A stretch of DNA of 64,000 nucleotides, from the NCBI GenBank assembly GCA_963743855.1, contig CAVURK010000009.1:257956-321955 (forward strand), given 5' to 3'. Made by a program: the position numbers and the translations under genes. The notes below the pieces were generated by a model. That model did no database searches. It was not told the origin of the DNA and saw only the letters and a list, made by a program, of their open reading frames with translations. The DNA comes from an uncultured Chloroflexia bacterium. Lineage in GTDB: Bacteria; Chloroflexota; Limnocylindria; Limnocylindrales; CSP1-4. This document shows positions 19,533-64,000 of this stretch, one piece after another; position 1 is the first letter of the stretch, and each line of letters opens with the position of its first letter.

Positions 19533-20095
19533 GCGAGTCCGGGATCCAGATCGGTGTCGCCCGGATCCGGGCAGGCGACGGTCGCGCCGCCGTCCTCCCC
19601 TCGACGAGCCGGCGATCCGCGCCGCCCTGACCGAGGTGATGGATCCCGAGCTCCCGATGCTCTCCGTCGTCGACCTCGGCATCGTCCACCGGGTCTCGGT
19701 CGCCCCCGATGGCGGTCCGATCCGGGTCGAGATCCTGCCGACCTTCGTCGGCTGCCCGGCGCTCGAGCTCATCAAGACGCGCGATCGCGGACCGTCTCGC
19801 GGCCTTCGGGCGTCCGGTCGAGGTCGACGCCACTTTCGAGATCCCGTGGACCAGCGATCGGATCAGCCCGGCGGGGCGCGCGGCGCTGCTCGCGGCGGGG
19901 ATCGCTCCACCGGCTGGACCCGGCCAGGACCGCGTCACCATGAGCACCCTCATCGACCTCGAGCCGCGCGTCCCGTGCCCGCATTGCGGCTCGCGGCGGA
20001 CGTCGATCGAGAACCTGTTCGGCCCGACGCAGTGCCGGACGATCCGCTACTGCGCCGATTGCCGCCAGCCGTTCGAAGCCATCAAGTCGGTCTGA
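19529..20095 (+). pseudogene. paaD: Phenylacetate-CoA oxygenase subunit PaaD, frameshifted at ~19780, with a tentative second shift at ~19598
   Basis: The conserved core IRAALTEVMDPELPMLSVVDLGIVH...PTFVGCPALELIK lies in one frame. AIADRLAAFG...PWTSDRISPAGRAALLAAGIAPP...CPHCGS...CADCRQPFEAIK lies in the next frame. The only coupled start (GTG 19529, a GTGA overlap with paaC) is in a third frame. Confidence 0.8.
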
Positions 20096-35492: not shown

Positions 35493-35597
35493 GGTGGGCG
35501 TCGTCCTCGAGGGGTGGGCTGCTGCCGAAATCCTCTCACAGACGACGCGACAGTCCCGTGCACAGGGGGCGGCCCGTGCTGCGGTACCCTTCGCGGG

Positions 35598-37365: not shown

Positions 37366-37366
37366 C

Positions 37367-39359: not shown

Positions 39360-39428
39360 ACTGCGCGGAGCGCCGTACCATGGGGGCGGCACGATCTCGG
39401 CGCTGGCGCCCGCACCCGAGGAGATCAG

Positions 39429-40976: not shown

Positions 40977-41006
40977 GCCGCCGCGATCCAGCCGACCGAG
41001 CCCGAG

Positions 41007-46553: not shown

Positions 46554-47440
46554 TCGTTGAGCACCGATTGCAGGCTGTCGGCGATGAGGTTGACCGCGAT
46601 GACCGTGCTGGCGATGGCCAGCGCCGGGAAGAGGGTCGGCCACCAGATCCCGGAGATCATGTTCGTGTATTCCTGGCTGACGCTGAGGCCCCAGTCGGGC
46701 GATGGCGGCTGGAGGCCGACGCCGAGGAACGACAGGGTGGCGACGGTGAAGATCGCGTAGCCGAAGCGGACCGTCATCTCGACGACCGTCGGCCCAAGGA
46801 CATTCGGGAAGATCTCGCGCGACAGGATGAACAAGCCCGACTCGCCGCGCAGCTTGGCCGCGGTCACGTAGTCGAGCTCACGCTCGGACAGGACCGCCGA
46901 ACGCACCGTCCGGGCGACGATCGGCGTGAACAGGATCCCGACGACCGCCACCACGACGAGTGGCGAGGTGCCGAGGACGACGAGCGTCAGCAGGGCGACG
47001 AGGACGACCGGCAAGGCCAGGAAGGCCTCGATGATCCGGCCCAGGACGTCATCGACCTTCCCGCGGTAGTAGCCCATCGTCAGCCCGAGGAGGGTTCCGC
47101 ACGTCACGCCGAGGAGTGCCGCCAGCGGAGCCACGATCAGCACGTCCCGCGAGCCGACCATCACTCGCGACAGGACGTCGCGCCCGATCCGGTCCGTTCC
47201 CATCCAATGCTCCGGGCTCGGCGGCAGGTGTCCCGTGGTGAAGTAGTTGAACGGGTCGTACGGCGTGATCCGCTGGCCGAGGACCGCGCAGATGATCCAG
47301 CCGATGATGATGATGTTGCCGATGATGAACGCCGGGCGGTGGAGCAGGAGCCGGATGGTCTCGCGGCGCGCCTGCGACCGCTCCGAGACGGGTGCTGCCA
47401 CGGTGGGTCCGAGCGGGGTCGGCTCGACGATGACGTCCAT
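46550..47440 (-). CDS. Opp/Dpp-type ABC transporter permease (DppC-like)
   Basis: Starts at the internal ATG (MDVIVEP...), overlapping the upstream stop as TGATG. Contains the HWMGTDRIGRDVLSR motif and six TM segments. Confidence 0.9.
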   Translation of the reverse strand: MDVIVEPTPLGPTVAAPVSERSQARRETIRLLLHRPAFIIGNIIIIGWIICAVLGQRITPYDPFNYFTTGHLPPSPEHWMGTDRIGRDVLSRVMVGSRDVLIVAPLAALLGVTCGTLLGLTMGYYRGKVDDVLGRIIEAFLALPVVLVALLTLVVLGTSPLVVVAVVGILFTPIVARTVRSAVLSERELDYVTAAKLRGESGLFILSREIFPNVLGPTVVEMTVRFGYAIFTVATLSFLGVGLQPPSPDWGLSVSQEYTNMISGIWWPTLFPALAIASTVIAVNLIADSLQSVLNE

Positions 47441-48393
47441 CAGCCTTGGGTATCGAGCCGGATCCGCGGGTTCATCCATGCCGTGATCAGGTCGGCCGTC
47501 AGGGTCGCCAGCATGTAGACGACCCCGATGACGATGACGCCCGCGGTGAGCATCGGCAGGTCCTTGTGCTGGGCGGCCTGCAACATCGTCGCGCCCATCC
47601 CGTTGTAGTTGAAGATCTTCTCGACCGCGATGATCCCGCCGAACAGGTAGCCGATCTGGACGGCGATGACCGCGATCGTCGGGACCAGCGCGTTACGCAG
47701 GACGTGGCGCCGCATCGTCTGGCTCGTGGTCAGCCCTTTCATCGTGGCCGTCCGCGTGTAGTCGGACTGGAGCGCCTCGATCGCGCCGGCGCGGGTCATC
47801 CGGGCGATGTAGCCGAAGTAGACGATCGCCATCGCGATCGCCGGCATCAGCAGGTAGCGGACCTGGGTCGGGATGTCCGCGTTCGGCGGCGGCGTGGCGA
47901 GCACGGGTAACCAGCCGAGCTGGACGCCGACGACCACGACGAGGATCGTGCCTGTGATGAACTCCGGGATCGACGACGTGGTGACCCCGAGCAGAACGAT
48001 CGCCCGATCCGCCTTGCGGTCACGCCGTCTCGCGGCATAGAGCCCGGCGATGATGCTGAGCGGGATGGTGATGAGCAGGGCCAGGAAGGCCAGCTTGGCC
48101 GATCTCCCGACCGCGCCCAGGATCTGCGGCAGGACATCCTGCTGCGAGGCAAACGATTCGCCGAAATCGAGCGTGACCAGGCGGCGCATCTGGTCGACGT
48201 ACTGGACGATGAGCGGCCGGTCCGTTCCGAGCCGCTGGTTCAGGGCGTCGACGCTCTCCTGCGGCGCGAACGGGCCCAGGATCGTCCTGCCGACGTTGGA
48301 CGGCAGCATGTTCGTGATGACGAAGACGATCGAGGCGAGCAACCACAGTGTGACCAGGGACAGGGCCAACCTGCGCGCAAAGTAGCGGGTCAT
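47440..48393 (-). CDS. Opp/Dpp-type ABC transporter permease (DppB-like)
   Basis: Begins MTRYFARRLALSLVTLWLLASIVFVI. The EAA-type loop is DYTRTATMKGLTTSQTMRRHVLRNAL. Confidence 0.9.
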   Translation of the reverse strand: MTRYFARRLALSLVTLWLLASIVFVITNMLPSNVGRTILGPFAPQESVDALNQRLGTDRPLIVQYVDQMRRLVTLDFGESFASQQDVLPQILGAVGRSAKLAFLALLITIPLSIIAGLYAARRRDRKADRAIVLLGVTTSSIPEFITGTILVVVVGVQLGWLPVLATPPPNADIPTQVRYLLMPAIAMAIVYFGYIARMTRAGAIEALQSDYTRTATMKGLTTSQTMRRHVLRNALVPTIAVIAVQIGYLFGGIIAVEKIFNYNGMGATMLQAAQHKDLPMLTAGVIVIGVVYMLATLTADLITAWMNPRIRLDTQG

Positions 48394-48425
48394 GCCCCCA
48401 CCAAAGCGGGCCGCGCGACGTCAGG

Positions 48426-48451
48426 CATGGGGCGCTGGCTGGCGCCCCATG
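48426..48451 (-). other. Intercistronic 10-bp perfect stem-loop between the SBP and permease genes
   Basis: CATGGGGCGC-tggctg-GCGCCCCATG lies in the 68-nt gap downstream of the SBP stop (48462). Confidence 0.5.
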
Positions 48452-48461
48452 CCGTGGTCGT

Positions 48462-50199
48462 TCAGGCTGTCTTGGACGCGGACGACAGGAACATCTGCCC
48501 GAGCGCGGACGTGTAGACGCCGGTGAACGTCTTCGCGTTGCCGGACAGGTAGTTGTAGTAAGTAGGCGATCCCGGCCGGGACGTCTTCGTTCATGATCGG
48601 CTCGATCTTGGCGCAGGCCGCCTTCTGGGCGTCGACGCCGACCGCCGTCTGGAACTCCGTGAACGCCGCGTCGAACGCGGGCGAGGAGTACTGCGACGCG
48701 TTCCAGACGCCATGCGTCTTGAACGCCGAGTTGAGGAAGACGTCCGGGGTCGGCCGGTGGCCGTAGTCGACGATGCCGAACTCGGCGGCTCCGGAGCACG
48801 GCGGATCCTTGGGGGTGTCCGGGCACCACTGCGCCCCGTAGAAGGCGCCGTTGTCCATGCCCTGGGGAGTGATCGTGATCCCGGCCGGTGCGGCCTGGCT
48901 CTGGAGCAGGACGGCGAGGTCCGGGATCTCGTTGAGCTGGCCGTACTGGAGCGTCACCTTGAGGTCCGTCACGCCGGCCGCCGACAGGAGCGACTTCGCC
49001 ATGTCGATGTTCTGGGCACGCTGCGGGACCGTGTCGCTGAAGTACGGGTAGAACGGGGCGATGACGTGGTCGTTGGCGAGGACCGCCTTGCCCTTGAACA
49101 GCTGCGTGATCAGGGCCGGGCGATCGATCGACAGGGCGAAGGCCTGGCGCACGCGCTTGTCGGCGAACGCGCCCTTGTCGCAGCGCATCCAGATCTGGCG
49201 GTGGTTGGTGGTCGGCGTCTCGACGACCGTGAAGTTCGCGTCGGTGAAGAGAGCCGCGCCCGACAGGACGTCGAACTGGACGAGGGCGTCGATCTGGCCG
49301 CCCTGGTAGGCGGTGACCATCGCGCCGGTGTCGTCGAAGAACGTGAATTCCACGCCGTCGAGCGGGGTCTTGCCGCCCCACCAGGCGTCGTTCCGGACGA
49401 ACGAGGCGCCCGATGCGACGTCGTACTTGGTGAGCTTGAACGGACCGGTCCCAGCGGGCACCTTGTCAAGGGTCGTCCCGGCCACGTACGCCTTCGGCGT
49501 GATGAGCGATTGGGCGTTGAAGACCGACACGAGGTACGGGAAGTTGCCGTTCGCGCTGACCAGCGTGAAGGTGACCGTGTTCGCGTCCGTGGCGACCGCC
49601 GATCCGGAGGCGATGACGCCCTTCAGGCCCGAGTTCCCGGCCGTGACCAGGCGCTCCATCGTGGCCACCACGTCGTCGGCGGAGAACGGCGTCCCGTCGT
49701 GCCAGGTCACGCCCTGGCGGAGCTTGAAGGTCCAGACCTTATTGGTGCTGTCCGGTGTCCAGGAGAGCGCCAGCCCGGGCGCGATGTCCGAGGCGTTCGC
49801 GCTCAGCGTGCACAGGAACTCGAGCGACTGGGCGGTGATCCCGTAGCTCGACAGGTCGACCATGGCGACCGGGTCGAGAGCGCCCTTGGGGCGCTGGGCA
49901 GCGACCCGGATCGTGCCGCCCGTGATCCCGCCGCCCGAGGCGGCTGCGCTCGCGCTTGCCGCCGCCGACCCGCCGGCCGAGGCCGGGGGCGCACTGGCCG
50001 CGACCGTCGCGCTCGGGCTCGAGGAGGTGCTGCTGCAGGCCGCGATGACCATGCTGACCGACGCCATCGACAGCCCGACGACGGTCGCCCGCTTGATGAA
50101 TTCGCGGCGGCCGATCCGGCCGCTGGCGAAGGCCTCGACCGTGTCGAGTTGGAGTGGCGTTGTCTCTCGGCGAACCTTGTCCAGCTGGGAATAGTCCAT
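48462..50199 (-). pseudogene. Family-5 (Opp/Dpp/Nik-type) substrate-binding lipoprotein with Tat-like signal, frameshifted at ~48560
   Basis: A GGAGGA Shine-Dalgarno sequence precedes the start. The signal is RREFIKRATVVGLSMASVSMVIAAC (twin-Arg plus lipobox). The C-terminus YNYLSGNAKTFTGVYTSALGQMFLSSASKTA-stop lies in the +1 frame. The span is 3n+1. Confidence 0.85.
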
Positions 50200-50320
50200 C
50201 GTCCTAGTTCCTCCGGGCGAGACCACCTGACGGCGACGAGCACCTTTGACGGCATCGATCGCGAATGCACCACGCCGCCCGGACACCGATTCCTCCAGCC
50301 GGGCAACGGGATGTCTCGGA

Positions 50321-50385: not shown

Positions 50386-51495
50386 GTGCGCATCACCGGC
50401 ATCCGGCTCGATCGGCTCGTGGTCCCGCTCGACCCCGCCTTCCCGGCCGCCTGGGACCCGGTCCCGCGGCGCTCGTTCGGGGCGACGGTCGTCAGGGTCG
50501 AGACCGACGAGGGCGTCGTCGGGATCGGTTCGGGCGACACGATGGACGGCTTCGAGGCCTACCAGCACCTGTTCGTCGGCGGCGATCCACTGGCCATCGC
50601 CCGGCACGTCCGCGCGCTCGAGACGATCGATTTCCACGCCGGCCGCTACTGGCCGCTCGAGGTCGCCCTGTGGGACATCCTCGGCCAGGTCGCCGGGCTG
50701 CCGGTCGCGACGCTTTTCGGCGGAGCGAGCGAAGGGATCGCTGCGTATGCCTCGTGCGGGATGCTCCTGCCGCCGACCGCTCGCGCGGAGTCTGCGCTCC
50801 GCCTCCGCGCCGAAGGGTTCGGCGCGCTCAAGATCCGGATCGATCCGCGACAGCTCGAGGACGGGCTCGCCGCGGTCGCGGCCACGCGCGATGCCGTCGG
50901 CGACTCGATGGCGATCATGGTCGACCTCAACCAGGGCTGGCGGATGGCCGGCGACACGACCCGCTCGCTCGACCCGGTCGCTGCCCGTGAGATCGCCGTC
51001 CGGCTCGCCGAGTTCGGCGTCCTGTGGGTCGAGGAGCCGCTGGCCGGCACGGACCTGCAGGGGCTGGCGGCGTTGCGGGCGTCCGCGCCGGGCATCCGGA
51101 TCGCCGGCGGCGAGATGACCCGGACATTCGCCGAGCTCGTCGCGGCGGTCGAGGCGGACGCGTTCGACGTCCACCAGCCCGACGTCGTCCTGGCCGCAGG
51201 GATGCTCCGGACGCGGACCGTCGCCGAGCTCGCGCTTGCGCGGAACCGCTGGTTCACGCCGCACACGTGGACCAATGGCATCGGGCTGCTGGCCAACCTG
51301 CATGTCGCGGCCGGTGTCGGTGGCGGGCCGTTCATCGAGTTCCCCTACGATCCGCCCGGCTGGACCCCGGAACGTCGCGACTTCATGCTCGCGGAGCCGG
51401 TCCGGCCCGGACCCGACGGGATCCTGCGCGTGCCGTCGGCGCCGGGCCTCGGGATCGTGCTCGACGAGGCCGCCGTGCGGCGGTACGCGGCGTGA
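50386..51495 (+). CDS. Enolase-superfamily enzyme (mandelate racemase/muconate-lactonizing family; epimerase, racemase or dehydratase)
   Basis: Starts at GTG: MRITGIRLDRLVVPL. Contains WDILGQVAGLPVATLFGG, LKIRI, VDLNQGW (metal Asp), WVEEP (Glu) and HQPDV. It is divergent from the ABC importer. Confidence 0.85.
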   Translation: MRITGIRLDRLVVPLDPAFPAAWDPVPRRSFGATVVRVETDEGVVGIGSGDTMDGFEAYQHLFVGGDPLAIARHVRALETIDFHAGRYWPLEVALWDILGQVAGLPVATLFGGASEGIAAYASCGMLLPPTARAESALRLRAEGFGALKIRIDPRQLEDGLAAVAATRDAVGDSMAIMVDLNQGWRMAGDTTRSLDPVAAREIAVRLAEFGVLWVEEPLAGTDLQGLAALRASAPGIRIAGGEMTRTFAELVAAVEADAFDVHQPDVVLAAGMLRTRTVAELALARNRWFTPHTWTNGIGLLANLHVAAGVGGGPFIEFPYDPPGWTPERRDFMLAEPVRPGPDGILRVPSAPGLGIVLDEAAVRRYAA

Positions 51496-53019
51496 CGAGC
51501 GGGGCGACCGGCGGAGCCGCCAAGCCGACGGCCGCCGACTGGCTCGCGCGCGCGGCGGCCGTCGACCCGCGGACCGAGCTGTTCATCGATGGGGCGTTCG
51601 TGCCTGCCGCGTCGGGCCGGACCTTCGACGACATCGCCGGGCGCGACGGCTCGCGGATCGCGCAGGTCGCCGAGGGCGACACGGAGGACGTGGAGCGGGC
51701 GGTCGCGGCGGCCCGTCGTTCGTTCGACGACAGACGCTGGAGCGACCAGCCGCCGATGGCGCGCAAGAAGGTCCTGCTCAGGCTCGCCGAGCTCGTCCGC
51801 GAGCATCTCGACGAGCTCGCGCTGCTCGAGTCGCTCGATGTCGGCAAGCCGATCCGCGACGCCTTGAACGTCGACATCCCGAGCGCCGCGACGACCCTCC
51901 AGTGGTACGCCGAGACGATCGACAAGGCGTACGGCGAGATCGGCCCGACCGGACCCGATGCCCTGTCGCTCGTGACCCGCGAGCCGATCGGCGTGGTCGC
52001 CGCGATCGTGCCCTGGAACTACCCGATGATCATCACCGCCTGGAAGCTGGGCGCCGCGCTCGCGACGGGCAATTCGGTCGTGCTCAAGCCTGCCAGCCAG
52101 TCGCCGCTGACCGCGCTCCGTCTTGCCGAGCTGGCCGCCGAGGCCGGTCTCCCCGACGGCGTGCTCAACGTCGTCACCGGTCCGGGCGCCGTGATCGGCG
52201 ACGCCCTGGCCCGTCACCCGGGCGTCGACAAGATCGCCTTCACCGGGTCCACCGAGGTCGGCAAGTCGCTCCTCCGCGCCGTCGGCGGATCGGACGTCAA
52301 GGCGATCTCGCTCGAGCTCGGCGGCAAGAGCCCGCAGGTCGTCCTGGCCGATGTCGGCGACCTCGAGGCGGCGGCCTCGGCGATCGGCTGGGGGATCTTC
52401 TACAACAGCGGCCAGACCTGCAACGCGGGCTCACGGCTCGTCGTCCACAGCTCGGTCCGCGAGGAGCTCGTCGAGCGGATCGCGGCGCTCGGCCGAAAGC
52501 TCGCCCCGGCGAGCCGCTCGATCCGCGGACACGCCTCGGCTCGATCGTGGACGACCGCCAGATGGCCAAGGTCCTCGGCTACGTGGACCTCGGGCGGCAG
52601 GAGGGCGCGACCGGTCGTCTCAGGCGGCGAGCGGGTGCGCGAGGACTCGGGCGGCTATTTCATCGAGCCGACGATCCTCGACGGCGTCGCGAACACCATG
52701 CGGGTCGCGCGCGAGGAGATCTTCGGGCCGGTCCTGACCGTCACCGAGTTCGACGATGAGGACGAGGCGATCGCCATCGCCAACGACACGCCCTACGGCC
52801 TCGCGGCCGGCGTGTGGACCCGCGACGTGAACCGGGCCCACCGGCTGTCGCGACGCGATCCGGGCCGGGATCGTCTATGTGAACACGTTCGACACCGCCG
52901 ACATCACCGTGCCGTTCGGTGGCTACAAGCAGTCGGGCTTCGGGCGCGACAAGAGCCTGCACGCGCTGGACGGCTACACCCAGCTCAAGACGACCTGGCT
53001 CGACCTGTCCGGTCGCTGA
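51492..53019 (+). pseudogene. NAD(P)+ aldehyde dehydrogenase, three frameshifts (~52505, ~52613, ~52853)
   Basis: GTGA overlap with the enolase-family gene. Contains VPWNYPM, FTGSTEVG, ELGGKSP and GQTCNAGSR. GEPLDPRTRLGSIVDDRQMAKVLGYV lies in the -1 frame. The sequence then returns to the first frame (YFIEPTIL...EEIFGPV) and finishes in +1 (AIRAGIVYVNTF...PFGGYKQSGFGRD). Confidence 0.85.
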
Positions 53020-53631: not shown

Positions 53632-55341
53632 ATGAGAACGCTGTTCCGACACCCGCGCCGGGTTTGGCACGTCCTCTCCGTCTTCTTCACATTCTTCATC
53701 GCCCCGGCCCTCCACCTGCCCGGTGGCGACCGGCGCCCCGGGCCGGTCCGACTGCGGCTCGCCTTCGAGCGCCTGGGCGGCGCCTGGATCAAGTTGGGCC
53801 AGATGCTGGCCCTTCGCTTCGACCTTCTGCCGGCCGCCTACTGCGACGAGCTGTTCAAGCTCCTCAACCAGGTCGAGCCGTTCTCGTACGACGAAGTCCG
53901 GCTGATCATCCAGCAGGAGCTCGGAGCCGACCCGGAGACGATCTTCCAGTCGTTCAGCCACGCGTCATTCGCGGCCGCGTCGATCGGCCAGGTCCATCGC
54001 GCGGTGCTGCACAGCGGCGAGGCAGTGGCGGTGAAGGTCCAGCGTCCGGGGATCCGAACGACCCTCGCTGCCGATATCGCGCTGATGTATTCGACGACCC
54101 GGATCCTGGACTGGACCCACGTCTTCGGGGCGACGCGCAGCCGCGAGGTCATCGACGAGTTCGCGCGCTGGACCGCCGACGAGCTCGACTATCTCGTCGA
54201 GGCGCGCCAGGCCGTCCTGCTCTACCAGAACGCCCAGGGCGCACAAGGGCGAGCGCATCGCCCGCGTCCACCGCGACTACACGACGTCGCGCGTCCTGAC
54301 GACCGAGCTGATCGTCGGCATCCCGCTGATCGACATCATGATCGCGAAGCGCGAAGGCAACACCGCCTATCTCGAGGCGCTCGCGGCACAGCGGCCACGA
54401 CCTGGACCGGATCATCCGCACCCTCGACTGGAACATGCTCAACCAGGTCTACGTGTTCGGCTACTTCCACGCCGACCTGCACCCGGCCAACCTGTTCGTC
54501 CTGCCGGGCGACGCGATCGGCTACGTCGACTTCGGGATCGTCGGCCAGCTGCCCGACCGCGTCCGGGACTCGCTGACCCGCTACAGCTGGCTGCTCTTCC
54601 GGGGCGAGGTCGAGTCCGCCGTCCTGGAGCTGATGCGCTGGCTGGCGCCCGGGCCTGCGACGGACATCGGGACCACGCGCTGGCAGCTGATCCGCGTCCA
54701 CCAGGCGTTCCTGTACGACACCGTCGCCGACCGGCTGCGGACGACGACCGAGGCCCCCGGCCCGGCTCGACACGCGGAGAACCCGTATTCGAAGCTGGCG
54801 GTCGACATCCTCGACACGATCCGCGTCCAGCAGCTGACGATGTCGTCGAGCATCGTCGGCTATCTCAAGATGCTGGTCACGCTCGGCACGCTGCGCCACT
54901 CGCTCGCCGTCGACTACGACCTGCAGGACAACGTCCGGCGCTTCGTCCGCCGCCTGGCGCGACAGCAGGGGATGGCGTTGCTCGACCCGCGCCGGACGTT
55001 CGACCGGCTGTACGCCGGCACCGGGCGCATCTCAGCGCGCGCTCGAGTTCATGGAGTTCATCGAGGCCCAGGAGCCGGTCATCACCGAGGCGACGACCAT
55101 GCTGTTCGGCTACCGGAACCGGATCCGGCGGGTCAAGCAGCGCTTGATCGGGTTCGGGACCGCGGTCCTGGTGGTCGGCGGCCTGCTCTACCTGGTCCTC
55201 GTCTTCCCGGACGACACCCGGCGGATCATGCCGCCGGAGGTGGACTACACGTGGTTCCAGCTGGGCCTTCTGGCGGTCCTCCTGGTCCTGATCGTCAACC
55301 TCATCCGGAACATGCGGAGCATGGGCGGGCCCGGCGATTAG
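53632..55341 (+). pseudogene. ABC1/UbiB-family atypical kinase with C-terminal TM helices, three +1 frameshifts (~54241, ~54392, ~55035)
   Basis: Contains WIKLGQMLALRFDLLP, AAASIGQVHRAVL..GEAVAVKVQRPG, HKGERIARVHRDYTTSRVLTTELIVG, FHADLHPANLFV and GYVDFGIVG. The terminal block is MEFIEAQ...LLAVLLVLIVNLI. Segments lie in successive frames, and the net span is 3n. Confidence 0.8.
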
Positions 55342-55403: not shown

Positions 55404-56961
55404 ATGGACACGACGGCGGGCGAAGGGCTCCGTCGTCGCCGGGGTGGCGGCCGCGAGGGCCATGCCCGGAACGCCGCCCCACAGCAACCGCCGTGGGCGC
55501 AGCCGCGGATGCGCTACCGGCCGACGGAGATCATCTCGGCCGATGAGCTCGAGTCGATCCATCTCGGCTCGCTGCGGGTCCTGTCCGAGATCGGGATGGA
55601 CTTCCTCGACGCCGATGCGCGCGAGGTCCTGCGCGCGGCCGGGGCGCAGACTCGAGCCCGATTCGCAGCGGGTTCGATTCGACCCGGCGATGGTCACCGA
55701 GCTGATCCGGACGGCGCCGGCGAGCTTCACCCTCCACGCCCGCAACCCGGCCTATGACGTCCAGCTGGGCGGCGACTGGGTCGCGTTCGGGACCGTCGGC
55801 AGCCCGCCCAACGTGTCCGACCTCGATCGCGGCCGACGGATCGGCAACCGGGCCGACTACCAGAACCTGTTGCGGATCGCCCAATCGCTCAACGCCATCC
55901 ACTTCCTGTCGGGCTACCCGGTCGAGCCGGTCGACCTCCACCACGGCGTCCGTCACCTGTGGGCCACCTACGACGCGCTGACCCTGATGGACAAGGCGAT
56001 CCATTGCTACAGCCTCGGCCGCCAGCGCAACGTCGACGTGCTCGAGATGGTCCGCATCGCCCGCGGCGTGGACGCCGCGACGATCGACCGCGAGCCGTCG
56101 GTCTTCACGGTCGTCAACTCGAGCTCGCCGCTCCGGCTCGATGCGCCGATGCTGCAGGGGATCATGGAGTTCGCGGCCCACAACCAGGTCGTGTGCATCA
56201 CGCCGTTCACCCTCGCCGGGGCGATGGCTCCGGTCACCCTCGCCGGCGCGCTCGTCGAGCAGAACGCCGAGGCACTGGCCGGGATGGTCCTGACCCAGGC
56301 GGTCAATCCCGGGGCGCCGGTGATCTACGGCGGCTTCACCTCGAACGTCGACATGCAGTCGGGTGCGCCCGCGTTCGGGACCCCGGAGTACATGCGGACT
56401 GCGATGATCGGCGGCCAGCTCGCCCGGCGCTATGGCGTGCCGTATCGGTCGTCGAACGTGTGCGCTGCGAACGCGCTCGACGCGCAGGCCGCCTACGAAT
56501 CGGTCTTCTCGCTGTGGGGCGCGATCATGGGCGGTGTCAACCTGCTGATGCACGGCGCCGGCTGGATGGAGGGCGGACTCCACGCCAGCTACGAGAAGAT
56601 GATCCTCGACGCCGAGCTGCTCGGGATGGTCGCCTCGTTCCTCGACCCGGTCGTCGTCGACGAGGAGACCGTCGCGTACTCCGCGATGCAGGAGGTCGGA
56701 CCGGGCGGCCACTTCTTCGGCGCCGAGCACACCCAGTCGCGCTACCGCACTGCGTTCCACAAGCCGATGCTCAGCGACTGGCGCAACTACGAGACCTGGG
56801 AGGAGGCGGGCTCGCCCGAGCTGCCGGCCAAGGCCAACCGGATCTGGAAGGAGCTGCTCGCGGCCTACGAGCCGCCGCCGATGGACCCGGCGATCCACGA
56901 GGAGCTCGAGGCGTTCGTCGCGCGCCGCGTCGCCGAGGGCGGCGTCCCGACCGACTATTGA
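55404..56961 (+). pseudogene. Second MttB-superfamily protein without pyrrolysine, frameshifted at ~55649
   Basis: The N-terminus MDTTAGEGLRRRRGGGREGHARNA...YRPTEIISADELESIHLGSLRVLSEIGMDF...AAGAQ lies one frame off from LEPDSQRVRFDPAMV.... Blocks ITPFTLAGAMAPVT, NPGAPVIYGGFTSNVDMQSGAPAFGTPE and HGAGWMEGGLHASYEKMILD are present. There is no in-frame TAG. Confidence 0.85.
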
Positions 56962-56989
56962 GGCGACCTCGGTCGCGGAGGGGAGCTGG

Positions 56990-59458
56990 ATGAAGTCTTC
57001 GGCCCAGGTCGTGGTCATCGGCGGAGGCGTCGTCGGTGCCAGCGTGCTCTACCACCTGACGAAGGCCGGCTGGACCGACGTCATGCTGCTCGAGCGCCGC
57101 GAGCTGACGGCCGGATCGACGTGGCATGCCGCGGGCGGGATGCACACCCTCAACGGCGACCCGAACGTCTCCAAGCTCCAGCAGTACACGATCAAGCTGT
57201 ACGAGGAGATCGAGCGGATCTCCGGCCAGGACTGCTCGATCCACCTGCCCGGCGGGCTGATGCTGGCCGACACCGAGGTCCGGATGGACTTCCTGCGGAT
57301 GGCCGTCGCGCGCGGCCGCTATCTCGGGATGGACCTCGAGCTGATCAGCGCCCGGGAGGCAGCGGACCTCTTTCCGTTGATGGATCCGCAGTACTTCGTC
57401 GGGGCGCTGTACGACCCGGTCGAGGGCCACGTGGACCCGACCGGTGTCACGCGCGCGTACGTGAAGTGTGCCCAGCTGGCCGGCGCGGAGGTCCACCAGC
57501 ACACGCCGGTCGTCGGGCTGTCGCAACGCGCCGACGGGACATGGGACGTGCGAGTGGAGTCGGGCGACGTCATCCACGCGGAGCACGTCGTCAACGCCGG
57601 CGGACTGTGGGCGCGCGAGGTCGGGCGGATGGTCGGCATCGAGCTGCCGGTCCTCGCCATGGAGCACATCTACCTCATCACGCAGGACATGCCCGAGGTG
57701 GCCGCCCACGTCGCCTCCACCGGCCACGAGATGCCGATGGCGCTCGACTTCGGCGGCGAGATCTACATCCGCCAGGAGGGCGGGGCCATGCTGCTCGGCA
57801 CGTACGAGCAGGCCTGCGTCCCGTGGTCGCCGCGCGAGACGCCGTGGGACTTCGGGTCGCAGCTCCTCAAGCCGGACATGGATCGGATCACGCCGGAGCT
57901 CGAGGTCGCCTTCCGGCACTACCCGGCGATGGGTACGACCGGGATCCGCCGCATCGTCAACGGGCCGTTCACGTTCTCACCTGATGGGAATCCGCTCGTC
58001 GGCCCGGTTCGCGGCCTGCGCGGCTTCTGGGTCGCCTGCGGGGTGATGGCCGGGCTGTCGCAGGGCGGCGGCGTCGGGCTCGCACTGGCGACGTGGATGA
58101 CCGCCGGCGATCACGGCGACTCGGGGATGGATGTCTGGGCGATGGATGTCGCGCGCTACGGCGACTACGCGACGCTCGCCTATACGAACGCCAAGGTCCA
58201 GGAGAACTACCGGCGTCGGTTCCGGATCACCTTCCCGAACGAGGAGCTGCCGGGCGCCCGGCCGCTGCTCACGACGCCGATCTATGACCGGCTGACCGCG
58301 GCCAACGCGGTCTGGGGCGCGACCTTCGGCCTCGAGCATGCGCTCTGGTTCCAGGAGCCTGGTCTCGAGCCCAAGGAGGACGTGACGTTCCGGCGGTCGA
58401 ACGCGTGGTCGCAGGTCGCAGCGGAGGTCGCGGCGGTCCGCGAGCGGGTCGGCATGACCGAGATCTCCAACTACGCCAAGTACCGGGTGACCGGTCCGGG
58501 CGCCGAGGCATGGCTCTCGTCGCTGCTGACCGCGCGGATGCCGGCCCCCGGCCGGATCACGCTGACCGCGATGCTCAATGACGCCGGTCGGATCGTCGGC
58601 GAGTTCACGGTCGCGCGTGCATCCGAGGCCGATGAGTACTTCCTGTTCGGGTCACTGCCCGCCGAGGTCCACCACTCGCGCTGGTTCCGCCACCATCTGC
58701 CGGCCGACGGCTCGGTGCGATTCGAGGTCCTGGGGCTTGGCCTGGTCGGGCTGTCGGTGGCCGGGCCGCGATCGCGCGACGTGCTCCAGGCGGTCGCACC
58801 CGACCTGGACCTGTCGACCCAGGCGTTCCCGTTCATGACCTTCCGCCAGGTCGACCTGGGCATGACGCCCGTCCACCTGGCCCGCATCAACTACGCCGGC
58901 GACCTCGGCTACGAGCTGTGGGTGAGCCCCGAATACCAGCGCGAGCTGTTCGATCGGATCGTTGCCGCGGGCGAGCCCCACGGCCTTCGGCTCTTCGGCA
59001 TGCGGGCGCTGATGTCGCTCCGCCTCGAGAAGTCGTATGGGACGTGGTTCCGCGAATACCGGCCGATCTACACGCCGCTCGAAGGCGGGATCCCGCGCTA
59101 CCTGAAGCTCGACCACGAATTCATCGGGCGCGCGGCGCACGAGGCGGAGGCAGCGGCAGGTGGCCCCGCCCGGCGGCTCGTCGCGTTCGTCGTCGACCCG
59201 GACCCGGACGACCCGGCCGATGTCATCGGCGACGAGCCGATCTGGCATGACGAGGCGGTCGTCGGCTGGGTGACCTCCGGCGGGTACGGGCATCACGTCA
59301 AGCAGTCGATCGCGCTGGGATACGTGCCGACCGAGCTCGCCACCCCGGACGGTCCCGGCGGGAGCGGCTTCGAGATCGAGATCATCGGGCGGCGACGTCC
59401 GGCGCGGCTCCAGCCCGAGCCGTTGTTCGACCCGGGTGGTCTCCGGATGCGCGCGTGA
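56990..59458 (+). CDS. Dimethylglycine/sarcosine dehydrogenase-family enzyme (FAD oxidoreductase fused to a GcvT folate-binding domain)
   Basis: Intact 822 aa. Contains VVVIGGGVVGASVLYHL and GSTWHAAGG (covalent-FAD His context). The C-terminal aminomethyltransferase-like domain contains YAGDLGYELW and LRLEKSY. Confidence 0.9.
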   Translation: MKSSAQVVVIGGGVVGASVLYHLTKAGWTDVMLLERRELTAGSTWHAAGGMHTLNGDPNVSKLQQYTIKLYEEIERISGQDCSIHLPGGLMLADTEVRMDFLRMAVARGRYLGMDLELISAREAADLFPLMDPQYFVGALYDPVEGHVDPTGVTRAYVKCAQLAGAEVHQHTPVVGLSQRADGTWDVRVESGDVIHAEHVVNAGGLWAREVGRMVGIELPVLAMEHIYLITQDMPEVAAHVASTGHEMPMALDFGGEIYIRQEGGAMLLGTYEQACVPWSPRETPWDFGSQLLKPDMDRITPELEVAFRHYPAMGTTGIRRIVNGPFTFSPDGNPLVGPVRGLRGFWVACGVMAGLSQGGGVGLALATWMTAGDHGDSGMDVWAMDVARYGDYATLAYTNAKVQENYRRRFRITFPNEELPGARPLLTTPIYDRLTAANAVWGATFGLEHALWFQEPGLEPKEDVTFRRSNAWSQVAAEVAAVRERVGMTEISNYAKYRVTGPGAEAWLSSLLTARMPAPGRITLTAMLNDAGRIVGEFTVARASEADEYFLFGSLPAEVHHSRWFRHHLPADGSVRFEVLGLGLVGLSVAGPRSRDVLQAVAPDLDLSTQAFPFMTFRQVDLGMTPVHLARINYAGDLGYELWVSPEYQRELFDRIVAAGEPHGLRLFGMRALMSLRLEKSYGTWFREYRPIYTPLEGGIPRYLKLDHEFIGRAAHEAEAAAGGPARRLVAFVVDPDPDDPADVIGDEPIWHDEAVVGWVTSGGYGHHVKQSIALGYVPTELATPDGPGGSGFEIEIIGRRRPARLQPEPLFDPGGLRMRA

Positions 59459-60696
59459 CCATCGCGATCCGCTGCGGCAGCCTCATCGACGTCGAGGCCG
59501 GAAGCACTGCCGCCGACCGGATCATCCACGTCGACGATGCCGGCCGGGTCACAGGTATCGGCACCGGTTCGGATGGGGTCCCGGACGGGGCCGTTGTCGT
59601 CGACTTGTCGGGGCTGAGCGTCTTGCCCGGGCTGATCGACACGCACACCCACCTCGTCGGCGACATCCAGACAGCATTCGTCCCCTCGGTCACGACCTCG
59701 GCCGCGGAGGAAGTCCTGGTCGGAGTCCGCCATGCCCGGCAGACGCTCGAGGCTGGGTTCACGACCGTCCGCGACCTCGGGTCGTTCCGGGCCTTCACCG
59801 ACTGCGCCCTGCGCGACGCGATCGACCGCGGCGACGTCATCGGCCCGCGGATGCGCTGCGCGGGCGCCTTCATCACCGCGCCGTGGGGCGGCGGCGATGT
59901 CGTCGGACTGGCGCGGGACGTCACCCTGCCCGAGGACCTTCGGTTCGGTGTCGTCCGGTCGCCAGACGAGGTGCGCGAGCGGGTCCGTCGGCTCCTCATC
60001 GGCGGCGCGGACGTCATCAAGTGCATCGGGACCGGGGCAGTGCTGACTCGCGGTGGCGTCCCGGGCGCGCCGGAACTCTCCGCGGCCGAGCTCCGGGCGG
60101 CCGTCGAGGAAGCTGCCTGGTACGGCGCGTTCGTCGCCGTTCACGCCCATGCCGCCGAAGGAGCCAAACGGGCGATCCGGGCAGGCGTCCGATCCGTGGA
60201 GCACGGGTCATACCTCGACGCCGAGGCGATCGCGATGCTCGCCGACACCGGGACGTACTTCAGCGTCGACCTGTATGACGGGGAGTGGGCGCTCGAGCAC
60301 GGCGCCCTGGAGGGCTGGCCTGCCGAGACCATGCGCAAGCTCGAGGAGTCGCAGGTCGGCGCGGAGGCCGTCGTGCGTTCAGCGGTCGAACAGGGTGTCC
60401 GGATCGTCTTCGGGACGGACAGCGGCGTCTACCCGCATGGCTTGAACGCCCGCCAGTTCGCCTGGTATCTCCGCTGCGGGATGTCGCCGCTCGCGGCGAT
60501 CCGGAGCGCCACGGTCGTCGCGGCGGACTGCCTCGGCTGGGCCGATCAGGTCGGGACGCTCGCGCCCGGACGGTTCGCCGACCTGGTCGCGGTCGACGGT
60601 GACCCACTGTCGGATCCGACCATTCTCGAACGGCCCGTCGTCGTCGCGAAAGGCGGCTCCGTCGTCATCGAGCGACGCCGAGACCGCGCGGCATGA
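59455..60696 (+). CDS. Amidohydrolase-superfamily metallohydrolase
   Basis: GTGA overlap with the upstream gene. Contains PGLIDTHTHL, VAVHAHA, SVEHG and the FGTDSGV metal-ligand pattern. Confidence 0.85.
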   Translation: MTIAIRCGSLIDVEAGSTAADRIIHVDDAGRVTGIGTGSDGVPDGAVVVDLSGLSVLPGLIDTHTHLVGDIQTAFVPSVTTSAAEEVLVGVRHARQTLEAGFTTVRDLGSFRAFTDCALRDAIDRGDVIGPRMRCAGAFITAPWGGGDVVGLARDVTLPEDLRFGVVRSPDEVRERVRRLLIGGADVIKCIGTGAVLTRGGVPGAPELSAAELRAAVEEAAWYGAFVAVHAHAAEGAKRAIRAGVRSVEHGSYLDAEAIAMLADTGTYFSVDLYDGEWALEHGALEGWPAETMRKLEESQVGAEAVVRSAVEQGVRIVFGTDSGVYPHGLNARQFAWYLRCGMSPLAAIRSATVVAADCLGWADQVGTLAPGRFADLVAVDGDPLSDPTILERPVVVAKGGSVVIERRRDRAA

Positions 60697-62953
60697 CTGC
60701 CGAGGTCGGGCTCGGGGCCGACGCCGCCACCATCGACGGGCGAATCGTCGTCGACGGGTCGCCGGTCGCGTTCGAGGCGGGGGACTCGGTCGCCGTCGCG
60801 ATCCTCCGGGGCGGGAAGGTGCCGGGGCGCGGCGGGACGCTGTGCCTGGCCGGCGACTGCGGGAACTGCCTCGCCGAGGTCGATGGCATCTCCTACCTCA
60901 GGACGTGCCAGACCGCGGCCCGACCGGGGTTGCGAGTCGTGCGGCATCCCGCTGGCGCGAACCCGCCACTCCCAGTTGTGGCCGCCACGGACCTGACGGC
61001 GACGCCGCTCGCGACGACCGTGCCGCTGCACCACCTCGAGATCGATGTCGCGGTGATCGGCGGCGGTTCGAGCGGGCTGGCCGCGGCCGCCGAGGCAGAA
61101 CGGGCGGGCAAGCGCGTGCGCGTCCTGGATGCGCATGCGGGCGAGGAGGTCGTCGCCATCTACGCCGGCCCGATGATCGTGGTCCGAACCGCGCACGGCA
61201 TGCTCCACGTCCATCCACATGAGATCGTCATCGCCACGGGGGCGGCGGAGATCCACCCGGTCGTTCCAGGCAATCGACTGGCCGGGATCGTGACAGCACG
61301 AGCCGCCCAGAAGCTGCACGCGGCAGGTGTGGAACTCGGTCGGGTCGTCGCAGTCGGCACGGCCCCCGCCGGCGTCCCGGCGACCTCGGTCGGCGGACTG
61401 ACTCGTCCGCTTCGAAGGTGAGGACGGCCGGGTTCAGGCGGTCGTCACCGCGGATCCCGCGACGGGCGCCGAGACGACCACCTCAGCCGACACCGTCGCG
61501 GTCGGCCTCGGCCTGGCCCCGCGCGATCTCCTTGCCCGGATGGCCGGCGAGGTGCCCGTCACCGTGGTCGGCGACGCGGCCACCGAACAACCCCTTCCTC
61601 CTCCACCGACCGACGGCGTCGTCTGCGGCTGCATGGGCACGACCGTCGCCGATCTCGCCGACGCGTGGGACCGTGGCTTCACCGAGCTCGAGCTGCTCAA
61701 GCGAGCCAGCCAGGCCTGTCTCGGCACGTGCCAGGGCGGTGCCTGCCTGCCGCAGGTCCGCTCCTGGATCGCCGCACGGACCGGCGAGGTGCCCGCGCCG
61801 TTCACTGCCCGGCCCGCCTCGCGCCAGATCACGCTCGCCGAGGCCGCCGCCGACGGCTACGTCGACGCATTCCGTCGGACCCCGCTCCACGACGAGCATC
61901 TCGCGGCGGGCGCCCGGATGGACCGGTTCGGTGGCTGGTGGCGGCCGTGGCATTACGGCGATGCCGTGTCGGAATACTGGGCGGTCCGCGAGGGCGTCTC
62001 GATCGGCGACGTGTCGACGCTCGGCAAGCTGGTCGTCTCCGGGCCTGACGTCGTCGAGCTCCTGGAGCGCCTCTACCCGTGCCACGTGGCGGACATCAAG
62101 CCCGGGCGCTCGCGCTACGCGCTCCTCCTGAACGAGCGCGGCCACGTGATGGACGACGGCATGATCCTGCGCGAGAGCGAGACGCGGTTCGTCCTGTCGT
62201 TCACGTCCGGTGGCGCCGCGAATGCCGAGATGTGGCTGCGCGACTGGATCGAGGTCTGGGGCCTCCGCGTCCATGTCCTCGACCGGACGATGTCGCTCGC
62301 CGCGATCAACGTGACGGGGCCCCTGGCACGGAAGCTGATGATCCGAGCCGGCGTTGCCGAGCCGCCTCGGTTCCTCGGGCATCTCCACGCGGACGTCGCC
62401 GGCGTCCCGTGCCACGTCATGCGCCTGTCGTTCACGGGCGAGGCGGCCTTCGAGCTCCACCACCCGGTCGATCGCTCGGTCGAGCTATGGCGCGCGCTCC
62501 TCCACCTCGGCGCCGACCTCGGGATCCGGCCGCACGGCCTCCAGGCCCTGTTCGGGTGTCGGCTCGAGAAGGGCCACGTCATCATCGGGATGGATACCGA
62601 GCTCGACACGACGCCGCGCCGTCTCGGGATGGACTGGGCGGTGCGGATGGAGAAGCCGCGCTTCATCGGCCGCGGCGTCGCTCGAACGGACGGCGAAGCT
62701 GCCCGATGAGCGACGCTGGCTCGGCTTCTCGATGGACGGTCAGGCGCCAGCCGAGGGAACGCCGATCTGGAGCGGCGGCGACGTGGTCGGCAACGTGACG
62801 GGGAGCTGGACCTCCCCGCTGCTCGGGAAGGCGCTGATGCTCGGCTGGCTGCGGCGGACGCCGTTCCCGGAACGGGTCGAGATCGATGGTCGCGAGGCGG
62901 TCGTCACGCCGACGCCGTTCTACGACCCGGAGGGCCTCCGTGCCCGCGCTTGA
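60693..62953 (+). pseudogene. soxA: Sarcosine-oxidase-alpha-like subunit with a Cys-containing N-terminal 2Fe-2S-type domain, two +1 frameshifts (~61401, ~62677)
   Basis: ATGA overlap with the upstream gene. Contains CLAGDCGNCLAEVDG...C, VAVIGGGSSGLAAA, the BFD-like CGCMGTT...CLGTCQGGAC, and a GcvT domain (HLAAGARMDRFGGWWRPWHY...GDVSTLGK...LRLEKGH). The segments lie in three successive frames. Confidence 0.85.
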
Positions 62954-63314
62954 GCCGTTGCATGGACTGCGGGTCGTCGCCGATCCGGCGGCGCTCGACG
63001 CCGCGCGCTGGGGCGGCACCGACGTGACCGTGCTCCGCCTCGCGCCCGATGACGCGTTCGCGATCGGGGCCGATGGTGTCGACGTCGACGACGCCGACGC
63101 GATCGTCGAATCGGAGGTCGGCTTCTCGGGCGGCTGGGTCGCCATCGAGGAGGTCGCTCATCACGTCGAGTGGTCGATCCCCGTCGAGCGCCCGGTCCTC
63201 GCCCAGGGATCGATCGCGAGCGTGCCCGCCAAGCTCTGGCTCCCCGACGATCGCGAGGCACTCCTCCTCACCGCCACCGCGTACGCGGACGAGCTCGCGA
63301 GTCGCCTCCGATGA
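62940..63314 (+). CDS. soxG: Sarcosine-oxidase-gamma-like small subunit
   Basis: It sits between the soxA-like and soxB genes, and the GTG start overlaps the end of soxA. The sequence VLRLAPDDAFAIG...AQGSIASVPAKLW is consistent with the SoxG family. The start (62940 or TTG 62958) is uncertain. Confidence 0.6.
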   Translation: MPALEPLHGLRVVADPAALDAARWGGTDVTVLRLAPDDAFAIGADGVDVDDADAIVESEVGFSGGWVAIEEVAHHVEWSIPVERPVLAQGSIASVPAKLWLPDDREALLLTATAYADELASRLR

Positions 63315-64000
63315 GCGCATACACCGACACGCTCCCCGAGATCCGCTGGCCCGACGCGCCGAAACGGAGCTACGACGTCGTGATCATCGGCGGCGGCGGG
63401 CACGGGCTCTCGACCGCGTACTACCTGGCGACCCGCCACGGGATCACCAACGTGGCCGTCCTCGAGGCCGACTACATCGCGTCGGGCAACACCGGCCGGA
63501 ACACGACGATCATCCGTGCCAACTACGGCATCCCGGAGGCGATCCGCTTCTACCAGCACTCCCTCGAGCTGTACCAGGGTCTCGAGGCGGAGACCGGCGC
63601 CGAGATCCTCCACCAGACCAAGGGCATCTTCTGGATCGCCCATACCGAGATGGCGATGCGCACTGAACGCGCGCGCTGCCTGATGAACACGGCCTGCGGC
63701 GCGAAGACGTTCATGGTCACCCCCGCCGAGCTCAAGGAGATGGTCCCGCAGGTCGACCTCACCGGTGGCGGCCGGTATCCGGTGCTCGGTGCCTCGCACC
63801 ATGTCGAGGGTGCGACGGCCCGGCACGACCGGGTCGCGTGGGCGTTCGCATCGGGCGCCGCCGCGCGCGGCGTCGACATCGTCCAGCACACGCCGGTGAC
63901 CGGCCTCCTTCGCGACGGCGAGCGCGTGGTCGGCGTCGAGACCGCCGGCGGCCCGATCGCCGCGGGTGTCGTCCTGTCTGCGGTCGGTGGCAGGGTGACC
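63311..64000 (+). CDS. soxB: Sarcosine oxidase beta subunit (FAD-dependent), 3' end beyond the window
   Basis: Absent from the ORF track because no stop lies in the window. ATGA overlap with soxG. Translation gives MSAYTDTLPE...YDVVIIGGGGHGLSTAYYLATRHGITNVAVLE...SGNTGRNTTIIRANY. Confidence 0.9.
   Translation, partial: MSAYTDTLPEIRWPDAPKRSYDVVIIGGGGHGLSTAYYLATRHGITNVAVLEADYIASGNTGRNTTIIRANYGIPEAIRFYQHSLELYQGLEAETGAEILHQTKGIFWIAHTEMAMRTERARCLMNTACGAKTFMVTPAELKEMVPQVDLTGGGRYPVLGASHHVEGATARHDRVAWAFASGAAARGVDIVQHTPVTGLLRDGERVVGVETAGGPIAAGVVLSAVGGRVT

Follow-up and report, generated by a model that had tools for sequence, protein, structure and literature searches.

A probable betaine demethylation gene cluster of soil Limnocylindrales and the amidohydrolase gene within it

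At one end of a 64 kb stretch of DNA from an uncultured soil bacterium of the Chloroflexota (contig CAVURK010000009.1 of assembly GCA_963743855.1, ~70% G+C; we refer to this whole stretch as the window), a gene for an amidohydrolase lies among genes for enzymes that appear to remove methyl groups from amines. Does this arrangement mean that the hydrolysis of a C-N bond belongs to the pathway, and that the pathway has an unusual substrate? Our best explanation, which is drawn from sequence comparisons and to which we give a probability of roughly 0.6, is that the cluster is a conserved catabolic unit of soil Limnocylindrales that demethylates a quaternary amine with a carboxylate group, glycine betaine being the most likely one; that the amidohydrolase gene has been relocated relative to its neighbors; and that the interruptions in some of the genes are assembly errors.

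The route that we propose follows from the families, domains and homologies of the enzymes. A protein of the MttB superfamily (MttB-2) would move one methyl group from glycine betaine to a corrinoid protein, and a pterin-binding methyltransferase would then hand this methyl group to tetrahydrofolate (THF); neither of these partners is encoded in the window. A flavoprotein of the dimethylglycine dehydrogenase (DMGDH) type would then oxidize the tertiary amine, and a sarcosine-oxidase-like complex (SoxA, SoxB and SoxG, perhaps with SoxD) would oxidize the secondary amine, with the one-carbon unit passing to THF via a GcvT domain in both cases. The end product would be glycine (glycine betaine -> dimethylglycine -> sarcosine -> glycine). 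The betaine could possibly be made from choline by an iron alcohol dehydrogenase (Fe-ADH) and an aldehyde dehydrogenase that are encoded on either flank.

Genes of the cluster and the enzymes they encode

From 55.4 kb to the end of the window, the + strand carries six genes:

55404..56961, +, MttB-2: PF06253; ~518 amino acids after removing an extra base near 55650
56990..59458, +, flavoprotein of the DMGDH/SARDH family: 822 amino acids, intact; DAO, FAO_M, GCV_T and GCV_T_C domains
59455..60696, +, amidohydrolase (COG1228, MEROPS M38), Cc2672-like: 413 amino acids, intact; Amidohydro_1 domain
60693..62953, +, short SoxA-like protein (alpha subunit): ~752 amino acids after removing extra bases near 61401 and 62683; GCV_T and GCV_T_C domains
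62940..63314, +, mini SoxG (gamma subunit): 124 amino acids; assigned by its predicted fold
63311..64000, +, SoxB (beta subunit): first 229 codons, as the window end cuts the gene; TIGR01373

The stop codon of MttB-2 (TGA, 56959-56961) is followed by a 28-nucleotide spacer with a GGAGG and then by the ATG of the DMGDH-type gene at 56990. The stop codon of the DMGDH-type gene overlaps the start of the amidohydrolase gene as GTGA (59455-59458), and the amidohydrolase gene in turn overlaps the soxA-like gene as ATGA (60693-60696). The soxG-like gene starts with GTG at 62940, right downstream of a GGAGG and 14 nucleotides within the soxA-like gene (whose stop is at 62953), and its stop codon overlaps the start of soxB as ATGA (63311-63314). 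These junctions, which we checked directly in the sequence, reproduce the spacer, the gene order and every start/stop overlap described in an earlier note on this DNA, and they bear out its picture of a tightly packed block on one strand. The domain content also agrees with the note's statement that the block encodes two independent FAD- and THF-dependent (GcvT-domain) N-demethylating enzymes together with a binuclear-metal amidohydrolase. Scans for promoters and terminators across 50-64 kb gave no sites, and the window had no matches in searches for Rfam families or tRNAs.

The same genes occur together in many related genomes. The closest proteins, and the 65 species-level loci that we compared (loci are numbered with the prefix L), are all from soil Chloroflexota labelled Candidatus Limnocylindrales, apart from three with other phylum labels, which are probably binning errors. 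In intact relatives, the order is MR_MLE-(aldehyde dehydrogenase)-MttB-(MFS or EamA)-DMGDH-amidohydrolase-soxA (715-742 amino acids)-soxG-like-soxB-soxD-Fe-ADH, and the series DMGDH-soxA-soxG-soxB-soxD-Fe-ADH is kept in at least 20 species loci. A soxD gene (PF04267/TIGR01374) directly follows soxB in L001, L003, L004 and L073. Because soxD and Fe-ADH come after soxB in these relatives, we expect from the shared order that both most likely lie just past the end of the window.

Once the extra base near 55650 is removed, MttB-2 is a full-length PF06253 TIM-barrel protein without an in-frame UAG, and by its sequence we place it in the non-pyrrolysine branch of the MttB superfamily. Its best structural matches in the PDB are 4YYC (E = 4e-111) and the glycine betaine methyltransferase MtgB (9YCE/2QNE, E ~1e-100), and it shares the motif GW[ML]EGG with 4YYC. 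In MtgB from D. hafniense, glycine betaine is bound by R312 and H348, which contact the carboxylate, and by Y97 and F356, which form cation-pi contacts with the trimethylammonium group. The counterparts of R312 and H348 in MttB-2 are R348 and H383, so both are kept. To judge from the alignment, the binding residues are compatible with a carboxylated betaine as the substrate and are not diagnostic for glycine betaine.

The DMGDH-like protein has an FAD-binding DAO domain, FAO_M, a THF-binding GCV_T domain and GCV_T_C. It is homologous over its full length to human and rat DMGDH (E ~1e-161) and to the dimethylglycine oxidase of Arthrobacter (E = 2.6e-93), and it is 80-88% identical to its orthologues. 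By these similarities, the 822-amino-acid protein is a member of the DMGDH/SARDH family.

The SoxA-like protein consists of Fer2_4 with four cysteines (a Cys4 motif), a short FAD/NAD Rossmann region, a BFD-like Cys4 region, SO_alpha_A3, GcvT and GcvT_C, in that order. Its C-terminal two thirds are similar to the alpha subunit of the heterotetrameric sarcosine oxidase TSOX (E ~1e-50), and it matches TIGR01372 at positions ~166-201 and 525-995 only. The N-terminus is ~230 amino acids shorter than that of the canonical alpha subunit (~965 amino acids); intact orthologues have 715-742 amino acids, and the complete N-terminal dinucleotide-binding region is not present. Two Cys4 motifs, CLAGDCGNC...x12...C in Fer2_4 and CxC...31...CQGGAC in the BFD-like region, are fully conserved in the window (60693-61400 and 61402-61700) and in L001, L003 and L004. 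This suggests that the SoxA-like protein carries [2Fe-2S] clusters, and a Sox complex with iron-sulfur clusters would possibly be a dehydrogenase rather than an oxidase.

The SoxG-like protein has no match by sequence or profile in Pfam, NCBIfam or the PDB, and the earlier note's call of soxG is borne out by the predicted fold instead. An alignment-based AF2 model has a predicted local distance difference test score (pLDDT) of 94, as compared to 36 for a single-sequence model, and the two best PDB matches of the model in Foldseek are the gamma chains of TSOX (2GAG_C and 1VRQ_C, TMq 0.69-0.74). Going by this model, the 124-amino-acid protein is a shortened SoxG. Its homologues (n=880) are all annotated as hypothetical and lack a Pfam domain; they form an unannotated family of mini-gamma proteins.

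The SoxB fragment (229 amino acids) matches TIGR01373 with 235 bits and the beta subunit of TSOX (1VRQ_B) with E = 3.6e-59, and a full-length SoxB orthologue matches TSOX beta with E ~1e-97. The histidine in its ARHDR motif aligns with the histidine of TSOX beta (in A(K/R)HD) that we take to be the residue with covalent FMN.

Three more genes lie on the same strand upstream of MttB-2:

50386..51495, +, MR_MLE (enolase superfamily): Pfam MR_MLE_N/C
51492..53019, +, Aldedh, an aldehyde dehydrogenase resembling PuuC and BADH: one-nucleotide insertion near 52859; its GTG start overlaps the MR_MLE stop as GTGA
53632..55341, +, ABC1/UbiB-type kinase gene: ABC1 profile split over frames, with ~3 frame changes in a frame plot

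That MttB-2 heads the operon, as the earlier note had it, is not established, given these preceding genes, of which the first two are linked to MttB in relatives. MttB-2 is probably not the first gene of its transcription unit. The MR_MLE of the window is 79-83% identical to those preceding MttB in L001, L003 and L004, and in relatives, the conserved cluster begins with MR_MLE. Its best match in the PDB is 4GGB (E = 1.6e-31), with weak matches to NCBIfam dehydratases. We considered whether MR_MLE might be HpbD, the epimerase of proline betaine and hydroxyproline betaine, and rejected this, as its best matches are galactarolactone cycloisomerase and acid-sugar dehydratases. The L001 orthologue of Aldedh matches the NCBIfam models for PuuC (612 bits) and BADH (521 bits), in both cases below the cut-off. 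The interval between Aldedh and MttB is a variable slot in relatives, and because the ABC1/UbiB-type kinase gene occupies this slot in the window, we consider that it is probably outside the pathway.

As for transport, genes for an OpuA-type betaine ATP-binding cassette (ABC) transporter (OpuAC, and ABC_tran+CBS) flank the cluster in L001 and L003. The window instead has a Dpp/Opp-type transporter (SBP_bac_5, two permeases and a fused ATPase) on the - strand at 44448-50200, divergent from the cluster, and L004 has the same type.

The window also contains a second MttB gene, MttB-1 (39429-40976, intact), whose product is ~40% identical to MttB-2. Within 37289-43058 (+), it lies between genes for two oxidoreductases of ~680 amino acids that combine old yellow enzyme (OYE)/FMN and FAD/NAD domains. 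Their best NCBIfam match is to "mycofactocin system FadH/OYE 2" and is below the cut-off; an architecture of this kind is presumably found in trimethylamine dehydrogenase and N-methylproline demethylase. This region may be a second betaine demethylation module with other downstream demethylases. Further upstream, at 13-22.5 kb (+), is a cluster of the phenylacetate/beta-oxidation type (an alpha/beta hydrolase, two enoyl-CoA hydratases, a TetR regulator, PaaA-family genes, 3HCDH and a thiolase), which is unrelated to the betaine cluster.

Frame breaks in the window

The earlier note had the genes and their order right, but two of these genes are not single open reading frames (ORFs): MttB-2 has one break and the soxA-like gene has two. 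The first ~82 codons of MttB-2 (from the ATG at 55404) are out of frame with the body of the gene (ORF 55444-56961); positions 1-73 of PF06253 are matched in frame 0 and positions 74-500 in frame 1, and neither segment contains an internal stop. Three frames are needed to read the soxA-like gene (60693-~61400, ~61402-~62682 and ~62684-62953), and by tblastn, Aldedh is split over two. Alignment with 4-7 homologous loci identified a single extra base in the window at ~52859 (Aldedh; 4 loci), ~55650 (MttB-2; 5 loci), and ~61401 and ~62683 (soxA-like; 6-7 loci).

These are among at least 11 frame breaks in the 64 kb (at ~8300, ~15030, ~20830, ~22370, ~52859, ~54240, ~54388, ~55000, ~55650, ~61401 and ~62683), all of which are +1, with one inserted base wherever this was checked. 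The other genes affected encode glutamine synthetase, an enoyl-CoA hydratase, a 3-hydroxyacyl-CoA dehydrogenase, a thiolase and the ABC1 kinase (~3 breaks). Contigs from soil metagenomes that are at least 85% identical to the window have one base fewer at 52856, 54242 and 54388, and single-gap soil contigs span the break sites in MttB-2 and soxA. An Illumina contig (L074) that matches 62285-63420 with ~95% identity shows exactly one indel relative to the window, at ~62683, and its soxA frame is intact. In sister long-read contigs from metagenome-assembled genomes (MAGs) of this lineage, the genes are similarly fragmented at other positions; for instance, the gene calls of L073 (ERZ25039542 contig_4530) are fragmented or fused, including a 574-amino-acid Amidohydro_1 + Fer2_4 protein and a 91-amino-acid MTTB fragment.

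Because the breaks all run in the +1 direction, because they affect unrelated genes, and because a short-read relative is intact, we take them to be errors in the long-read assembly or consensus, and we are quite confident that they do not reflect gene decay. If the frameshifts were instead real, then the betaine pathway (MttB-2, the soxA-like gene and Aldedh) would be decaying to pseudogenes. Three or four genes of the cluster are indeed interrupted, and reads from the source organism that could be used for checking were not among the runs that we searched with the window: the best run contained 11% of its words, which counts against our explanation. But gene decay would have to account for identical +1 events in unrelated housekeeping-type genes across the window, for one direction throughout, and for interrupted genes with no in-frame stops or deletions. 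Furthermore, the segments 3' of each break retain a G+C content at third codon positions of ~0.9 and 74-80% protein identity with their orthologues, and the like fragmentation of other long-read contigs and the intact short-read contig also speak against decay, which we regard as very improbable. Programmed frameshifting was ruled out, as the sites lie in many unrelated genes and have no common slippery motif.

Two more ORFs of the window mix unrelated domains: 33819-36368 (+) combines an ABC permease with a family 2 glycosyltransferase, and 19354-20844 (+) combines a PaaD-like FeS_assembly_P domain with 3HCDH_N. Probably these two ORFs are also indel artefacts, in which adjacent genes have been merged. 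Gene models anywhere in the window need to have their frames checked, and more generally, broken genes in long-read MAG sequence can look like pseudogenes.

Family and position of the amidohydrolase

According to the earlier note, the amidohydrolase implied a C-N hydrolytic step and a creatinine-, hydantoin- or amide-type substrate. Profiled against COG1228 families of known function, it is Cc2672-like. Its best NCBIfam match is XaaProDiPepCaul (NF051886, the "Xaa-Pro dipeptidase" of Caulobacter; 430.9 bits versus a cut-off of 500), and the closest structure, over the full length, is that of Cc2672 (3MTW, E = 1.3e-88). The ligands of the binuclear metal center (HxH, Lys, HxH, His and Asp) all align with those of 3MTW, within the motifs DTHTH, IKC, HAH, EHG and GTDSG, and they are invariant in 21 homologues. 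Cc2672 is an L-Arg/Lys carboxypeptidase, and the characterized relatives in COG1228/M38 remove the C-terminal residue from dipeptides or N-acyl amino acids, with specificities for Arg/Lys, hydrophobic residues, Pro, Phe (ochratoxin) or pipecolate. On sequence grounds, the amidohydrolase is a Cc2672-like carboxypeptidase or aminoacylase; it belongs to the same subgroup, and the specificity of Cc2672 is not transferable to it. It does not resemble the hydantoinases (19.7 bits versus a cut-off of 393 for the D-hydantoinase model, and 19-33 bits across the D-hydantoinase, allantoinase and dihydroorotase models), its Pfam scan gave no match to creatininase, and it has no similarity to N-carbamoylsarcosine amidase.

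Across the 65 species loci, the amidohydrolase gene is found in different places:

between DMGDH and soxA: 6 loci
downstream of Fe-ADH by three minus-strand genes, with genes for a MerR regulator and a DNA ligase as neighbors: ~19 loci
in an unrelated neighborhood (ArsR/SRPBCC, HhH-GPD, ApbE or two-component genes): 36 loci
position unreadable because the contig is too short: 4 loci

The in-operon position is also seen in the window, L004, L070 and L073. The sox cluster is visible in 11 of the loci with the downstream type, and in most of these, DMGDH directly adjoins soxA. Nearly all of these genomes carry the amidohydrolase, and because the downstream slot is empty in the genomes with the in-operon copy, we conclude that one orthologue has shifted its place by ~6 kb. 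In-operon and downstream copies are 76% identical to each other, as compared to 77.5% identity among in-operon copies, and the alignment has no column that tells in-operon copies apart from the rest. A neighbor-joining tree, in which frameshifted MAG sequences cause distortion, shows only that the in-operon and downstream types group in a single clade, with the type of unrelated context as its sister.

More distant homologues (51-52% identical) are found on two Streptomyces plasmids, L071 (NZ_CP116354.1) and L072 (NZ_CP030074.1), where the adjacent gene encodes an FAD oxidoreductase or an ABC substrate-binding protein. Also close by, at a distance of a few kb, are solA (for N-methyl-L-tryptophan oxidase), a Glu/Leu/Phe/Val dehydrogenase-like gene and, in one of the plasmids, a gene for 5-guanidino-2-oxopentanoate decarboxylase. 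The neighbors hint at an Arg-releasing or N-alkyl amino-acid context.

The membership in the Cc2672/"Xaa-Pro dipeptidase" group, the varying neighborhood and the lack of a distinguishing residue do not support a C-N hydrolytic step in the pathway, and they largely undo the earlier note's claim. The suggested creatinine-, hydantoin- or amide-type substrate fares no better, given the family comparisons above and a core that matches the betaine route. Because MttB, DMGDH and Sox reproduce the textbook three-step route from betaine, the core does not need an unusual substrate. Because the same orthologue sits outside the operon in sister species, the in-operon amidohydrolase is best read as a lineage-specific relocation, in the one sub-lineage to which the source bacterium belongs; it would at most provide an accessory feed-in and is not a defining hydrolytic step. 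It follows that a tight gene overlap alone is no proof of pathway membership, as this gene is mobile relative to the operon.

The amidohydrolase might nevertheless be a genuine step, in which it would free a methylated amino acid from N-acyl-sarcosine, Xaa-Sar, an N-methylated amide or an acylated or amidated betaine, and its neighbors would demethylate the product. In the window as well as in six relatives (L001, L003, L004, L007, L011 and L070), its gene has a four-nucleotide overlap with each neighbor; it is near the sox cluster in ~25 of the 65 species loci, and even the downstream type is still within ~4 kb of the sox genes. These two observations weigh against a mere relocation, and such coupling in 6-7 species together with the proximity to sox could reflect a real functional link. 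Relatives in the family cut tertiary amides (Xaa-Pro, N-acyl-Pro and N-acetyl-pipecolate) that are chemically like N-acyl-sarcosine, and a 52%-identical homologue is near an N-methyl amino-acid oxidase gene (solA) in the two Streptomyces plasmids. Yet in ~19 species the orthologue is outside the operon, next to genes for a MerR regulator and a DNA ligase, and 36 have it in unrelated contexts; the in-operon copies lack a distinguishing residue; the closest characterized enzyme is an Arg/Lys carboxypeptidase; and there is no likeness to the creatininase, hydantoinase or N-carbamoylsarcosine amidase families. On balance, a genuine step seems unlikely. We are more doubtful still that the amidohydrolase was recruited, in the sub-lineage with the in-operon copy, to free sarcosine or another N-methyl amino acid from N-acyl or peptidyl conjugates whose tertiary-amide bonds resemble those of Xaa-Pro, or that the whole cluster, given its MR_MLE enzyme without an assigned role, its MttB without the aromatic pair of MtgB and its Fe-S-type SoxA, targets an unrecognised soil betaine. 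If the amidohydrolase was so recruited, then the betaine route would also take in methylated amino acids that are bound as amides.

The substrate and comparison with known systems

With the amidohydrolase set aside as a relocated gene, the question becomes which quaternary amine the core enzymes act on. The OpuA-type transporters in relatives, the kept carboxylate-binding residues of MtgB and the conserved gene set count in favor of glycine betaine. Several observations count against it. Y97 and F356 of MtgB both align with glycine in MttB-2, so the aromatic pair is not kept, and MttB-2 groups with 4YYC, a structure without an assigned substrate, rather than with MtgB. No corrinoid (B12-binding), pterin-binding or RamA-type genes were found among the ORFs scanned in the window or within 10 kb on either side of L001, L003 and L004. 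MR_MLE has no role in the textbook route, and the assignment of Aldedh and Fe-ADH to choline oxidation is under the equivalog cut-offs. The absence of partner genes nearby does not exclude them, because they are dispersed in Ruegeria. In Ruegeria pomeroyi, genetic and proteomic evidence from 2025 established an aerobic, cobalamin-dependent route for glycine betaine, in which a PF06253 methyltransferase is followed by the demethylation of dimethylglycine and sarcosine, and the corrinoid protein MtgC and the pterin-binding protein MtgD can be encoded elsewhere in the genome (PMC12478193).

The substrate could instead be proline betaine, a carnitine-type compound, trimethyl-lysine or another amino-acid betaine, with MR_MLE acting as a racemase or epimerase and the flavoenzymes demethylating the matching tertiary and secondary amines. 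The missing aromatic pair of MttB-2 and the conserved enolase-superfamily gene at the head of the cluster would fit with this, as would the Dpp-type rather than OpuA-type transporter of the window and L004. The second MttB in the window, with its own demethylase-like partners, also suggests that substrates have diversified, and there are up to seven PF06253 paralogues per genome, probably for different methylated compounds (PMC12478193). However, the likeness of MR_MLE is to acid-sugar dehydratases and cycloisomerases, not to HpbD, and three demethylation enzymes suit a trimethylammonium compound with a small backbone. Furthermore, DMGDH and sarcosine oxidase are the proteins to which the downstream enzymes show the strongest homology, and in L001 and L003 the cluster has OpuA-type transporters on its flanks. 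Another betaine therefore strikes us as possible and rather improbable, and glycine betaine as the better candidate.

The Limnocylindrales, which are uncultured, are abundant in soil, where quaternary amines make up a sizeable pool of the organic nitrogen. The cobalamin-dependent MttB route, which was lately shown in marine bacteria, is probably present in soil Chloroflexota too, where it would be coupled to a structurally reduced sarcosine-oxidase-like complex, probably with iron-sulfur clusters.

How does the cluster compare to systems that have been characterized? The DMGDH-type protein shares its four-domain architecture with mammalian DMGDH (5L46, 4PAA) and with the dimethylglycine oxidase of Arthrobacter (1PJ5); unlike mammalian DMGDH, it is bacterial. 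The Sox proteins resemble SoxBDAG of Corynebacterium sp. U-96 (1VRQ/3AD7) and Stenotrophomonas maltophilia (2GAG), with a highly similar beta subunit, the same SO_alpha_A3, GcvT and GcvT_C domains at the C-terminus of alpha, the same gamma fold and, in relatives, a delta subunit (SoxD). The canonical order of sarcosine oxidase genes is B-D-A-G, whereas the cluster has A-G-B-D. Also, the alpha subunit has ~715-750 amino acids rather than ~965, with two Cys4 motifs in place of most of the N-terminal dinucleotide-binding region, and the gamma subunit has 124-134 amino acids rather than ~190-195 and is unrecognisable by sequence. The amidohydrolase has full-length homology to the COG1228/M38 group of Cc2672 (with Sgx9359b, Sgx9355e, the prolidases Sgx9260b/c, ochratoxinases and N-acyl amino-acid acylases), with aligned metal ligands and a similar size (~410 amino acids). 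It differs from Cc2672 in that it falls below the NCBIfam equivalog cut-off and, in some species, is embedded in a demethylation operon.

The closest parallel to the cluster as a whole is the MtgBCD route of Ruegeria, also an aerobic heterotroph, in which a PF06253 methyltransferase works with DMGDH-type and sarcosine-oxidase-type enzymes, the downstream demethylation genes are often co-located, and the partners need not adjoin (PMC12478193). In contrast to Ruegeria, the cluster is from soil Chloroflexota; MttB-2 is nearer to 4YYC and is without the aromatic pair of MtgB; mtgC, mtgD and ramA are not seen nearby; and MR_MLE, an aldehyde dehydrogenase, Fe-ADH and, in some species, the amidohydrolase are added. 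The variant features are the A-G-B-D order, the short SoxA with its Cys motifs, the mini SoxG and the lineage-specific insertion of the peptidase-type amidohydrolase. None of these requires a new kind of system, and the core of the cluster is of a known pathway type.

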